A DNA stretch of 64,000 nt from Escherichia coli (GTDB lineage Bacteria > Pseudomonadota > Gammaproteobacteria > Enterobacterales > Enterobacteriaceae): the NCBI RefSeq assembly GCF_046105845.1, contig NZ_CP151004.1; one strand, written 5' to 3'. A program made the position numbers and the translations under genes. The notes beneath the pieces are model-generated. The model was not told where the DNA came from and ran no database searches. It worked only from the letters and a program-made list of their open reading frames with translations. The first letter of the stretch is position 1, and each line of letters begins with the position of its first letter. Positions 7,052 through 11,206 of the stretch are shown here, piece by piece.

Positions 7052-7236
7052 ACGCCACAATTCAAACGATACCAGAGCTTCTTATCCAGACACGAGGCAA
7101 TCAGACCGAAGTGGCAAGGATGCTTTCCTGCGCAAGAGGAACAGTGCTCAAGTACAACCGAGACAGCAAAGGCGAGCGTCATGTAATAGTTAACGGCGTC
7201 CTGATGGTCAAACAGGGCAAGAGGGGAAGACGATGA
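7048..7236 (+). CDS. ninH: NinH
   Basis: 62 aa ...GNQTEVARMLSCARGTVLKY..., resembles lambda NinH. Confidence 0.75.
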   Translation: MNATIQTIPELLIQTRGNQTEVARMLSCARGTVLKYNRDSKGERHVIVNGVLMVKQGKRGRR

Positions 7237-7856
7237 GACTCGAAAGCGTAGCTAAATTTCATTCGCCAAAAAGCCCGATGATGAGCGACTCACCACGGGC
7301 TACGGCTTCTGACTCTCTTTCCGGTACTGATGTGATGGCTGCTATGGGGATGGCACAATCACAGGCCGGATTCGGGATGGCTGCATTTTGCGGTAAGCAC
7401 GAACTCAGCCAGAACGACAAACAAAAGGCTATCAACTATCTGATGCAATTTGCACACAAGGTATCGGGGAAATACCGTGGTGTGGCAAAGCTCGAAGGAA
7501 ATACTAAGGCAAAGGTACTGCAAGTGCTCGCAATATTCGCTTATGCGGATTATTGCCGTAGTGCCGCGACGCCGGGTGCAAGATGCAGAGATTGCCACGG
7601 TACAGGCCGTGCGGTTGATATAGCCAAAACGGAGCAGTGGGGGAGAGTTGTTGAGAAAGAGTGCGGAAGATGCAAAGGTGTCGGCTATTCAAGAATGCCA
7701 GCAAGCGCCGCATATCGCGCTGTAACGATGCTAATCCCAAACCTTACCCAACCCACCTGGTCACGCACTGTTAAGCCGCTGTATGACGCTCTGGTGGTGC
7801 AATGCCACAAAGAAGAGTCAATCGCAGACAATATTTTGAATGCGGTCACACGTTAG
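7233..7856 (+). CDS. Q: Late-gene antiterminator Q (lambda-type)
   Basis: 207 aa, MRLESVAKFHSPKSPMMSDSPRATASD..., recalled as essentially lambda Q. Confidence 0.95.
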   Translation: MRLESVAKFHSPKSPMMSDSPRATASDSLSGTDVMAAMGMAQSQAGFGMAAFCGKHELSQNDKQKAINYLMQFAHKVSGKYRGVAKLEGNTKAKVLQVLAIFAYADYCRSAATPGARCRDCHGTGRAVDIAKTEQWGRVVEKECGRCKGVGYSRMPASAAYRAVTMLIPNLTQPTWSRTVKPLYDALVVQCHKEESIADNILNAVTR

Positions 7857-7898
7857 CAGTATGATTGCCACGGATGGCAACATATTAACGGCATGATA

Positions 7899-7940
7899 TT
7901 GACTTATTGAATAAAATTGGGTAAATTTGACTCAACGATG
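7899..7940 (+). promoter_or_regulatory. Late promoter pR' with qut region
   Basis: TTGACT (7899-7904), 17 nt spacer, TAAATT (7922-7927), as in lambda pR'. Confidence 0.75.
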
Positions 7941-7963
7941 GATAAATGCACTCGTTAAATAAA

Positions 7964-7992
7964 GCCCTGAGTTAATAGCTCGGGGCTTTTTG
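7964..7992 (+). terminator. Rho-independent terminator just downstream of pR' (candidate tR')
   Basis: Hairpin GCCCTGAGTTAATAGCTCGGGGC followed by TTTTT. Confidence 0.6.
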
Positions 7993-8134
7993 CGTTTTAA
8001 ACACGACCTTTCTGAAAGCACATCAAACCAAATACCAGACAGACAAAAATAATCACCTTATCCGCTGTGGCTACGGTGCGGTGTGCTTTGCATAAAAGAA
8101 AACCAGCTCAATGGCTGGCTTCGTGAAAGCGGGT

Positions 8135-8170
8135 GGCAAGAGGTTGCGCTAACAACCTCCTGCCGTTTTG
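8135..8170 (+). terminator. Second hairpin plus U-run in late leader
   Basis: 12-bp stem GGCAAGAGGTTG/CAACCTCCTGCC (one mismatch) followed by GTTTTG. Confidence 0.45.
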
Positions 8171-8289
8171 CCCGTGCATATCGGTCACGAACAAATCTGA
8201 TTACTAAACACAGTAGCCTGGATTTGTTCTATCAGTAACCGACCTTATTCCTAATTAAATAGAGCAAATCCCCTTATTGGGGGTAAGAC

Positions 8290-8613
8290 ATGAAGATGCC
8301 AGAAAAACATGACCTGTTAGCCGCCATTCTCGCGGCAAAGGAACAAGGCATCGGGGCAATCCTTGCGTTTGCAATGGCGTACCTTCGCGGCAGATATAAT
8401 GGCGGTGCGTTTACAAAAACAGTAATCGACGCAACGATGTGCGCCATTATCGCCTGGTTCATTCGTGACCTTCTCGACTTAGCAGGACTAAGTAGCAATC
8501 TCGCTTATATAACGAGCGTGTTCATCGGCTACATCGGTACTGACTCGATTGGTTCGCTTATCAAACGCTTCGCTGCTAAAAAAGCCGGAGTAGAAGATGG
8601 TGGAAATCAATAA
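8290..8613 (+). CDS. S: Holin S (class I, dual-start M1/M3)
   Basis: 107 aa [20 protein letters not shown]..., recalled as lambda S. Confidence 0.95.
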
Positions 8614-9073
8614 TCAACGTAAGGCGTTCCTCGATATGCTGGCGTGGTCAGAGGGAACAGATAACGGACGACAGAAAACCAGAAATCATGGTTATGACGT
8701 CATTGTTGGCGGAGAGCTATTCACTGATTACTCCGATCACCCTCGCAAACTTGTCACGCTAAATCCAAAACTCAAATCAACAGCAGCCGGGCGCTATCAG
8801 CTTCTTTCCCGTTGGTGGGATGCCTACCGTAAGCAGCTTGGCCTGAAAGACTTCTCTCCCAAAAGCCAGGACGCTGTTGCGCTGCAGCAGATTAAGGAAC
8901 GTGGCGCTTTGCCGATGATTGATCGCGGTGATATTCGTCAGGCTATCGACCGTTGCAGCAATATCTGGGCTTCACTGCCGGGCGCTGGCTATGGCCAGTT
9001 CGAGCATAAGGCTGACAGCCTGATTGCAAAATTCAAAGAAGTTGGCGGAACGGTCAGAGAGATTGAGGTATGA
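8597..9073 (+). CDS. R: Endolysin R (lytic transglycosylase)
   Basis: 158 aa [24 protein letters not shown]..., recalled as lambda R. Confidence 0.95.
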
Positions 9074-9537
9074 GCAGAGTAACCGCGATTATCTCAGCTC
9101 TGGTTATCTGCATCATCGTTTGCCTGTCATGGGCTGTTAATCATTACCGTGATAACGCCATCGCCTACAAAGAACAGCGTGATAAAAAAGTCAGTGAGCT
9201 GAAGCAGGCGACCGCCACCATTACTGACATGCAGCAACGCCAGCGTGCTGCTGATGCACTCGATGCTAAATACACGAAGGAGTTAGCTGATGCGAAAGCT
9301 GAAAATGATGCTCTTCGGCGCAAGCTTGATAATGGTGGCAGGGTGCTCGTCAAAGGAAAATGCCCTGTGCCATCCTCAGCCGAAACCTCCGGCGCCTCCG
9401 GCATGGGCAATGATGCCACCGTCGAACTCTCTCCAGTTGCTGGACGAAACGTTCTCGGTGTCCGGGACGGAATTATCCGCGACCAAACAGCACTGAGAAC
9501 GCTTCAGGAATACATCAGGACGCAATGCCTTCGATGA
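9070..9537 (+). CDS. Rz: Inner-membrane spanin Rz
   Basis: 155 aa, N-terminal TM helix then coiled coil; follows R. Confidence 0.9.
9290..9496 (+). CDS. Rz1: Outer-membrane lipoprotein spanin Rz1, embedded in +1 frame of Rz
   Basis: [21 protein letters not shown] lipobox, proline-rich; wholly inside Rz. Confidence 0.75.
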
Positions 9538-9711
9538 TAGCGATAATTTTACTCATCATCCTTCACATCTGGCTCTGTAGACAGGGTGGTGAACACTTCT
9601 GGAGTGAATCCAGATTAAACATCTCATTGCTGATGCTTGATATTGAGCATCTGGCGCGCGGTAAGGGGCTGCGTTGAGATAAGAGCCAGTCATTACAAAT
9701 ACCAGGATTTA

Positions 9712-9736
9712 GCCTCGCATTTGCGGGGCTTTTTTA
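9712..9736 (+). terminator. Rho-independent terminator after lysis cassette
   Basis: Hairpin GCCTCGCATTTGCGGGGC followed by TTTTTT. Confidence 0.6.
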
Positions 9737-9880
9737 CATCTGCAGTAAACCGCGCATCGCAGCGCGTAACAATCCCGAGTCTTTCAGAAAGCTGAGCCTG
9801 AGAACTGCCGTATATGGTGGCGACCATCTCGGGGCGGCTTTTCTGTGCGAACAGGCTCATCTTTCTAAAAGGTAAACGCT

Positions 9881-10366
9881 ATGAATAACTTTGTTGAAAT
9901 TACCTCAAGAATTGGTCGCATGTACCAAGATTTTCTTATAAGTGGAAAGGGGTCTGGCGACATCATAGAGGAAATTGACAAGCTAAGTGCAGAGCTGAGA
10001 AGGAATGGGTGTGTTAATTCTATCTTTTTTGAAACTTTGCTAAAGCAAGGCTTCATGTTTGACATGATTAATTACAACAAAGTCGCACCCAGTGCTTCGC
10101 AAAAATCATATGTGTACGTTCTGCATGCTGAAGATAGTGGGCTAACAAAAATAGGGTTTAGTCGCAGGGTTAATAAACGAATTTCAGAGATATCTCGCAT
10201 GAGTGGTGGGAAGCTAAATCTAATTGCAAAGATTCCGGCCGATAGAGAGCTTGAAACCAAATTGCACCAAAAATATTACAACTATAGGTCGCACGGGGAG
10301 TGGTTTAGTCTCAATCGTTGTCATTTGAAAGAGCTAAAAGAAATGCCTGGTAACGAACTGAAATAA
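9881..10366 (+). CDS. T5orf172 / GIY-YIG-like domain protein (161 aa), accessory gene
   Basis: C-terminal half has YVYVL...TKIGFS...R...E...EWF pattern typical of T5orf172 (GIY-YIG superfamily); AT-rich; flanked by terminators. Confidence 0.65.
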   Translation: MNNFVEITSRIGRMYQDFLISGKGSGDIIEEIDKLSAELRRNGCVNSIFFETLLKQGFMFDMINYNKVAPSASQKSYVYVLHAEDSGLTKIGFSRRVNKRISEISRMSGGKLNLIAKIPADRELETKLHQKYYNYRSHGEWFSLNRCHLKELKEMPGNELK

Positions 10367-10542
10367 TCCCCGGACTCACTAATTAACGGCAGTACAGCGA
10401 AACGACCCAAGCCAGTAAGTGGGGAAATAACACTGGCAGCCACTGAAAGATGAACCTCCTGCCTTATGGCAAAAAAGATTCTTTGTGGCGGCGGACTGAT
10501 GGAAGGACATCCTAATTTCAGCCAAACATTGAAGGAGTTGTT

Positions 10543-10614
10543 ATGTCAGCAGAAGGTTTCAATAACCCATCAAAATTCCGGGATGAGTGGGATAGCAGCG
10601 TAAAGAGTAAGTGA
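10543..10614 (+). CDS. Possible 23-aa small peptide (MSAEGFNNPSKFRDEWDSSVKSK)
   Basis: ATG preceded by AAGGAG at optimal spacing inside a 350-bp gap; too short to assess otherwise. Confidence 0.2.
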   Translation: MSAEGFNNPSKFRDEWDSSVKSK

Positions 10615-10719
10615 TGCCATCACAAAAGCCATTCCCTACAGAGTGGCTTTGATAATGGCTTATACCCTACACGGGATAACTTAACTGATATCCCTTTTAA
10701 CGGATAAACGGAGCCAACA

Positions 10720-10962
10720 ATGGCAGAGATTATTCCCATGACTGAAGAACAGAAATTCCAGTTAGAGATTTACAAACTGGTCATGAACCAGAACGCAGCC
10801 GCAGAAGAAGCATTTCAGTTCATTGGCACTGACGAACTGAAGCTTGAGCTATTCAAAATTCACTTCCAGTCAGGCGGCGCTAATTCAGATATCACGACCC
10901 GCACTATCGAAGCGGTGCGTAAATCGAAGGAAGCGTTAGACCTGTTCACTACCGGAGCATGA
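10720..10962 (+). CDS. Hypothetical acidic protein (80 aa), accessory gene
   Basis: ATG with GGAG RBS; helical acidic product; followed by an ORF starting 2 nt after its stop. Confidence 0.55.
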   Translation: MAEIIPMTEEQKFQLEIYKLVMNQNAAAEEAFQFIGTDELKLELFKIHFQSGGANSDITTRTIEAVRKSKEALDLFTTGA

Positions 10963-10963
10963 T

Positions 10964-11143
10964 GTGAGCCGCGTAATCAATTTGGGTAAGGAGAAGAAAT
11001 TCCCAATTACTCAAGAGCTATACGAGAGGCTGGAAAGCGTCATCCATGATTACGATGGTGAAATCAGTTTATGCGAGGCGATTGGTACACTCGAATTGCT
11101 GAAGCAGTCACTGATTGAAGGCGCGAAAGAGTCCTTAACCTGA
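10964..11143 (+). CDS. Hypothetical small protein (59 aa, GTG start) coupled to upstream gene
   Basis: GTG ORF found by eye (VSRVINLGKEKKFPITQELYERLESVIHDYDG...), ends before a terminator. Confidence 0.4.
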   Translation: MSRVINLGKEKKFPITQELYERLESVIHDYDGEISLCEAIGTLELLKQSLIEGAKESLT

Positions 11144-11168
11144 AATAACGATTAAGTGAGATGAATAT

Positions 11169-11194
11169 GGCAGCACTCAACATGCTGCCTTTTA
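11169..11194. terminator. Bidirectional rho-independent terminator between convergent small-gene pairs
   Basis: Hairpin GGCAGCACTCAACATGCTGCC with T-run on plus strand and A-run upstream. Confidence 0.55.
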
Positions 11195-11206
11195 TCGTTG
11201 ATTAGT

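Follow-up and report, generated by a model that had tools for sequence, protein, structure and literature searches.

The late leader analyzed here is very probably a P22-type version of the lambdoid late antitermination cassette, carried in an HK620/P22-like prophage. The window in which it lies is a stretch of 64,000 nt of Escherichia coli DNA (contig NZ_CP151004.1, assembly GCF_046105845.1), and the leader occupies the interval between the antiterminator gene Q and the holin gene S. This reading was built on sequence identities, colinearity with P22, predicted structures with their conservation, and prevalence among phages and genomes, all of which were observed directly, and the sequence holds nothing against it. 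A late control region of the P22 type is already known: it is annotated in P22 and is common in E. coli and Salmonella phages. The features of the region are as follows:

Positions 7233–7856, plus strand: Q, lambda-type late antiterminator (207 aa; Pfam PF03589 Antiterm, 189.6 bits)
Positions 7899–7927, plus strand: late promoter pR' (−35 hexamer TTGACT at 7899–7904, 17 nt, −10 hexamer TAAATT at 7922–7927)
Positions 7927–7956, plus strand: initial transcribed region (−35-like TTGACT at 7927–7932; AACGAT at 7934–7939; +1 at A7934 by homology)
Positions 7961–7998, plus strand: tR' / t late, predicted intrinsic terminator (scan match, fold, and P22 homology)
Positions 8009–8096, plus strand: predicted conserved stem-loop in the P22-type spacer (module 7997–8120; RNAalifold, 9 sequences)
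Positions 8089–8122, minus strand: terminator-like hairpin (scan match and fold; 8103–8107/8114–8118, then UUUUCUUUU)
Positions 8120–8191, plus strand: predicted three-tier stem-loop (RNAalifold consensus of 13 distinct versions)
Positions 8220–8283, plus strand: predicted long-range helix and small hairpin upstream of the S ribosome-binding site (RNAalifold, 13 sequences)
Positions 8290–8613, plus strand: S holin, first late gene, with a dual start (ATG AAG ATG) (open reading frame; Pfam PF05106, 103.8 bits)
Positions 9070–9537: Rz

The window carries an HK620/P22-like prophage, and its first 24 kb matched HK620 and related podoviruses at 95–97%. The late leader follows the last early-right gene and precedes the lysis genes. 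The Q protein has 205 of its 207 residues identical to those of lambda Q, and its gene ends at 7856, 42 bp upstream of the −35 hexamer. The DNA of the S holin gene is 99% identical to lambda S and 91% identical to the P22 holin gene. The open reading frame at 8597–9073, which is in the endolysin position, matched no Pfam family. Several other observations were made in the surrounding prophage. The P22 immI/ant antisense RNA sar was found at 26758–26824 on the minus strand (Rfam RF00262, 71.6 bits), which marks the prophage as P22-like. A tRNA-Arg (anticodon CCT) at 33018–33092 on the minus strand adjoins a 397-codon minus-strand open reading frame at 31699–32892; these are probably the prophage attachment site and integrase. 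Directly after Rz, the segment from 9600 to 11200 has a low GC content (40–44%, compared with ~50% in the flanks) and contains a MUG113/T5orf172-domain open reading frame (9881–10366) and a DUF2560 open reading frame (10720–10962). It resembles an insertion of accessory (moron-like) genes that separates the lysis genes from the packaging genes.

The original prediction had recognized pR' by its hexamers TTGACT and TAAATT, 17 nt apart, and alignment with lambda bore this out. From the −35 hexamer to +8 the promoter is identical to that of lambda, one base differs between the Q stop codon and the promoter, and 19 of the first 23 transcribed positions are the same. We identified pR' because of this base-for-base identity and the annotated P late of P22, and not because of a consensus match. 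A consensus promoter scan of 3 kb returned 4 sites compared with 2.9 expected from shuffled sequence, which is chance level; the counts from the promoter and terminator consensus scans, neither of which exceeded the shuffled expectation, were kept out of the evidence. The two hexamers flank the Q-binding element, and the records of P22, HK140, and Emek label the homologous stretch as promoter and qut. By homology with lambda (position 44587) and with the annotated P22 start (37887), the transcript would begin at A7934.

The sigma-70-dependent pause element is made up of the −10-like AACGAT (+1 to +6) and the TTGACT one base upstream of it, and positions 7927–7939 are the same as in lambda. The roles of these elements are known from work on lambda pR' and from Yin et al. 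2022, and a pause at +16/+17 (7949/7950) is expected by analogy. From +9 to +17 there are four substitutions relative to lambda, followed by CTCGTT at +18 to +23 in both sequences; the four substitutions could shift the position or the strength of the pause. A separate promoter-like site (TTGAAT, 18 nt, TATGAT) was seen at 7836–7865, across the Q stop codon and ~70 nt upstream of the pR' start. Its second hexamer is CATGAT in lambda (C to T at 7860), and sites of this kind are expected by chance in the scan.

A hairpin terminator had been predicted to start ~30 nt after the transcription start, and it was found there: the hairpin plus U-run at 7961–7998 spans +28 to +65. The hairpin itself (7961–7989) has 13 pairs, 6 of them G-C, and is followed by TTTTTGCGTTTT; its G-C core (7964–7971/7979–7986) is extended by A-U pairs, and U5-GCG-U4 continues to 7998. 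Folding of +1 to +67 gave −23.3 kcal/mol (z = −4.3), a value that none of 200 shuffles reached. This hairpin was the sole plus-strand terminator-like site in the 3-kb scan. The P22 annotation (NC_002371.2) places "P late or PR'" at 37852–37880 with a qut-like site, the 5' nucleotide of the RNA at 37887, "t late or tR'", antiterminated by the gene 23 protein, at 37917–37945, and gene 13 at 38244 (+358). The hairpin in the window is 92% identical to the P22 "t late or tR'" and lies at an equal distance from +1, and the Emek record annotates the same terminator.

Terminator variants were folded one by one, as a MAFFT alignment did not place the ST104 and ES18 inner stems correctly. Pairing was kept through three inner stems (GAG/CUC in the window, GCA/UGC in ST104 and ES18, and CGCGG/CCGUG in the viral contig L020), and all three alleles continue with CUUUU(U)GCGUUU, also behind the other Q type of ST104 and ES18. 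We identified the first hairpin as the putative tR' because of its position and homology with the P22 t late, the strength of its fold, the pairing kept through three stems, and the P22 and lambda literature. In that literature, P22 gp23 and lambda Q are interchangeable (PMC8022706), and the part of PMC7547250 that cites Roberts et al. 1976 describes P22, like lambda, 21, 82, and phi80, as having a short antitermination-regulated late RNA. The earlier suggestion that this variant makes a shorter 6S-like RNA gained support, in that with the first terminator at the position of the P22 "t late or tR'", a Q-independent RNA of ~58–65 nt is expected by analogy from pR'-tR'.

The distance from +1 to the S ATG (8290) is 356 nt, compared with 599 nt in lambda and 357 nt in P22. 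The interval had been put at ~360 bp and thought to be shorter than its lambda equivalent; both statements were correct, and the difference from lambda is 243 nt. Alignment with lambda stops at +24 and restarts at ~8119; because the interval is not colinear with that of lambda, the observation stands. The flanks (7857–7956 and 8119–8289) are 96–100% identical to lambda. Between them, 7958–8120 is a separate module that is 69–92% identical to P22 and has no lambda counterpart at the BLAST level. It stands in place of two lambda segments (+24 to +200 and +201 to +430) and matches P22, epsilon34, Emek, HK97, HK022, and HK/mEp phages. The modules align with P22 in the same order and with no large indels (tR' 92%, spacer 69%, pre-S block 75%, and holin 91%). 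Between the E. coli and Salmonella versions, +1 to +63 is 92–100% conserved and the spacer ~70%. The leader is a mosaic in these alignments, with Q, pR', and the pause region as in lambda, a short terminator and a 124-bp spacer as in P22, HK97, and HK022, and a pre-S block as in lambda.

The modules were also found in other combinations. IMG/VR contigs containing an exact 29-mer across the pR' −10 hexamer and the pause element were taken (n = 29), and their leaders were painted with the window and lambda modules. The short terminator came first in 20 of them and the lambda 6S body in 7; in the remaining 2 (L020 and L032), a third early hairpin stands at the same place (GCCCCGCGG...CCGUGGGGC), with an unrelated leader of ~760 nt. 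Recombinants were of several kinds. Contigs L023 and L031 have the short terminator and then the lambda spacer, and L017 has the lambda 6S body and then a short-type hairpin at +279 to +307. In L021 the short terminator is followed by a ~600-nt insert (+64 to +667), and in L027 and L030 unrelated sequence is joined to the short terminator at the U-run. Phages ST104 (L036, 880–1212) and ES18 (L006, 880–1206) have another Q type and late promoter, yet share sequence with the window from the 3' half of the terminator onward, through the U-run and the spacer to the pre-holin block; the shared 3' half points to a recombination joint inside the terminator hairpin. As judged from these junctions, the leader is assembled from exchangeable modules that meet in the pause region and in the terminator. 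The short-type segment, at least 80% covered, was present in 260 of 5,426 complete E. coli genomes and in 88 phage records. With the same coverage, the lambda-type segment was present in 217 of the 5,426 genomes (the top-listed matches being mostly laboratory strains) and in 21 phage records.

Beyond tR', the leader is predicted to be a conserved, highly structured 5' UTR. The fold of the whole 377-nt leader had z = −6.05 relative to shuffles. An Rfam search of the leader returned nothing near a gathering score; the best matches were generic terminator-like ones (E 0.8–3.8). A second strong hairpin had been proposed at 8135–8170 as a terminator. The hairpin is present (8135–8146/8153–8164, followed by GTTTT at 8165–8169; z = −2.4, with 6 of 200 shuffles as good) and lies in a block that is 98% identical to lambda 45017–45185, the lambda copy being at 45031–45060; a role as a dedicated terminator is unlikely. 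It has a tail of four U only, which falls short of the T-run criterion of the terminator scan, and no conserved U-tract of ~7–9 nt after a G+C-rich hairpin was found at 8135–8169.

In the consensus structure the second hairpin forms the apex of the three-tier stem-loop at 8120–8191. The outer helix pairs 8120–8126 with 8185–8191 (UUCGUGA/UCACGAA), the middle helix pairs 8129–8134 with 8170–8175 (GCGGGU/GCCCGU) across the U-run, and GUUUU (8165–8169) is an internal loop. P22-type versions have a CG to UA change in the middle helix and a UA to CG change in the apex. In P22, epsilon34, and ES18 the GUUUU tail is replaced by UGAUCU or UGAUUU, and the stem and enclosing helix are kept. Across the helices 98.7% of the cells were paired, compared with 38–49% when the partners were slid; all compensatory changes fall on a single clade split and give modest support. 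Because the helix across the U-run covaries, selection appears to act on the long stem-loop and not on a terminator, and the second hairpin is probably the tip of a conserved leader stem-loop rather than a dedicated terminator. The UUCGUGA at 8120–8126 can pair either with CACGA at 8002–8006 or with UCACGAA at 8185–8191, and the three stretches are nearly invariant; an alternative pairing of 8120–8126 is possible. The lambda late leader reportedly contains RNase III sites.

Two further predicted structures lie on either side of this stem-loop. The one at 8009–8096, in the spacer, contains five base pairs in which both partners differ between versions of the E. coli type and of the P22 type (Salmonella); this covariation is effectively one clade split, and gives modest support for the helix. 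Upstream of the S ribosome-binding site, the long-range helix 8220–8229/8262–8271 is invariant in the 13 sequences, and the small hairpin next to it (CCCC at 8270–8273 and GGGG at 8280–8283) has one compensatory pair. The small hairpin would correspond to the "sdi" element that controls the S107/S105 starts in lambda. On the minus strand, the terminator-like hairpin at 8089–8122 reads GAAGCCAGCCATTGAGCTGG, then TTTTCTTTTAT; on the plus strand, AAAAGAAAA (8094–8102) precedes the hairpin at 8103–8118. P22, epsilon34, ST104, and ES18 retain both the A-run and the hairpin, in a spacer that is otherwise only ~70% identical. A consensus scan found no minus-strand promoter-like site within 1 kb downstream of this hairpin.

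The pause, Q loading, termination, and read-through proposed for this P22-type cassette are taken from the lambda and P22 literature. By that analogy, pR' would fire constitutively, and RNA polymerase would pause at ~+16/+17 with sigma-70 held on AACGAT. Without Q, the polymerase would stop at the hairpin and U-run (+28 to +65) and release an RNA of ~60 nt, which would be the functional equivalent of the 194-nt 6S RNA of lambda. Q made from the early right operon would bind between the −35 and −10 hexamers and load with NusA onto the paused polymerase, and the Q nozzle on the RNA exit channel would block hairpin formation. The Q-loaded polymerase would then pass tR' and all later hairpins into S, R, Rz, and the structural genes. 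Both the nozzle and the indifference of the Q-loaded polymerase to later hairpins were described by Yin et al. 2022. It had been considered unclear which terminator Q reads through; the answer is straightforward: it would read through all of them, the first hairpin being the regulatory tR' and all later ones being ignored by the Q-loaded polymerase.

Compared with the P22 late region (gene 23, P late, qut, t late, and gene 13), the order and distances in the window are alike and the Q family is the same; in both, the terminator extends from +28/+31 to ~+59 and the holin starts at +357/+358. The differences are in the pre-S block and S, which in the window are of the lambda type (98–99%) and not of the P22 type, in the terminator loop (UUAAUA in the window and UUUAACC in P22), and in the second hairpin, whose P22 version is without a U-run. 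The window shares with the lambda cassette, in identical or nearly identical form, Q (99%), the site that Q binds, both pause elements (−35-like and −10-like), S, and the final 170 nt of the leader. In contrast, the terminator hairpin of lambda is farther downstream (+135 to +189) and differs in sequence, the lambda 6S RNA is 194 nt long, and the window lacks both the lambda 6S body (+24 to +134) and the LPR2 region that binds Hfq (+230 to +264). The lambda 6S body and tR' (+24 to +194) had no BLAST match in the window leader, and the 6S probe target was absent at up to 8 mismatches; the LPR2 probe, which mapped to lambda 44816–44850 (+230 to +264), had no target in the window at up to 8 mismatches.

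Small RNAs have been found in two of these systems. In lambda, 6S and the 63-nt LPR2, which is just downstream of tR', are Hfq-bound (bioRxiv 10.1101/2024.10.31.621285; Silverman et al. 2024), and LPR2 is in the position where the window has the 8009–8096 stem-loop. The 6S RNA was seen in the lysogenic state, and the promoter is constitutive in lysogens (bioRxiv 10.1101/2024.10.31.621285). A location of PreS upstream of S was rejected: the same paper puts PreS/LPR1 in the early left operon and has only LPR2 and 6S in the late leader. In Stx phages, the pR'-tR' transcript is processed to StxS, an Hfq-dependent regulator (Sy et al. 2020, PMC7547250). The likeness to the window is that of a short constitutive RNA from an antitermination-controlled late promoter, ended at tR'. 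StxS differs in having another Q and promoter and no sequence similarity, and in being cut by RNase E from a 258-nt primary transcript; Hfq binding and targets were demonstrated for StxS, whereas the RNA in the window is a prediction. Phages 82 and 21, which were set apart by their descriptions, have unrelated Q families (PF06323 and PF06530) and different binding sites and pause positions.

Four other explanations of the leader or its parts were weighed. The short leader could be a lambda leader with an internal deletion, as the original prediction had also suggested. The lambda-identical flanks and the 243-nt shortfall fit such an event, but the 163 bp at 7958–8120 do not, being absent from lambda at the BLAST level and homologous to P22, epsilon34, ST104, and ES18. 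After a deletion, lambda sequence would be expected to flank the junction, not another terminator and a conserved structured spacer, and the short form is no rarer than the lambda form. A deletion is effectively ruled out by the P22-type module that replaces two lambda segments and by the mixed-module recombinants (L023, L031, L017, and L027), and we regard it as highly improbable. The second hairpin (8135–8164 plus GUUUU) could be a real back-up terminator, so that tandem terminators would catch read-through in the absence of Q. Its G+C-rich stem of 12 positions, followed by UUUU, and the same sequence at lambda 45031–45060 favor this idea, and Luk and Szybalski reportedly described tandem terminators of the lambda late operon in 1983. 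The short tail described above argues against it, as do the P22, epsilon34, and ES18 versions, which keep the stem with compensatory changes but have UGAUCU or UGAUUU as the tail, and the enclosing helix, which pairs across the U-run and covaries. A literature search for additional lambda late terminators (Luk and Szybalski) found nothing. We consider a back-up terminator unlikely. It is scarcely credible that the leader encodes a small protein. A 51-codon GTG open reading frame is present at 8083–8238 and is annotated as "hypothetical protein" in HK140, mEp234, ECP1, and Sf101, but a 5-nt insertion breaks it in leaders of the mEp043/mEp213 type, P22 and epsilon34 lack it at that position, it has no Pfam match, and it overlaps helices with RNA-type compensatory changes; it is probably a mis-annotation. 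An epsilon34 "gp63"-type open reading frame was likewise rejected as coding, being not conserved across alleles.

The remaining explanation is compatible with the P22-type cassette and concerns the ~60-nt pR'-tR' RNA (7934 to ~7995), which could be a constitutive, Hfq-binding, trans-acting sRNA of lysogens like StxS. The predicted RNA has a mostly unpaired or weakly paired A/U-rich 5' region, a terminator hairpin, and a U-tail, features that are generic to any terminated leader. The activity of the promoter in lambda lysogens, the presence of 6S RNA in the lysogenic state, and the binding of Hfq by StxS and lambda 6S are in its favor, as is the high conservation of +1 to +63 relative to the spacer. 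However, that conservation is equally well explained by Q loading, terminator function, or a recent exchange of the Q-pR' block. The RNA has no sequence similarity to StxS, lambda 6S, or LPR2, and its complementarity within the 64-kb window was limited to a chance-level 10-mer. A search of the literature on the P22 transcriptome and small RNAs found no report of such an sRNA role. We judge this explanation to be quite unlikely. A related possibility is that the structured spacer (8009–8118) is processed into a stable RNA, as is lambda LPR2.

As a P22-type version of the lambdoid cassette, the leader in the window is the textbook late switch in the form annotated for P22, and it matters little as a discovery. 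Its meaning lies in how the lambda leader is to be viewed: several alleles exist, the 194-nt 6S leader of lambda is not the commoner one, and with a lambda-type Q, termination at ~+60 would be the norm. The late leader is a recombination hot spot with at least four exchangeable modules. Because 6S and LPR2 are without a counterpart here, any role of leader sRNAs needs separate study for the P22-type allele. If the sRNA explanation were true, it would extend to Salmonella lysogens of P22 and to the prophages found in ~5% of complete E. coli genomes.
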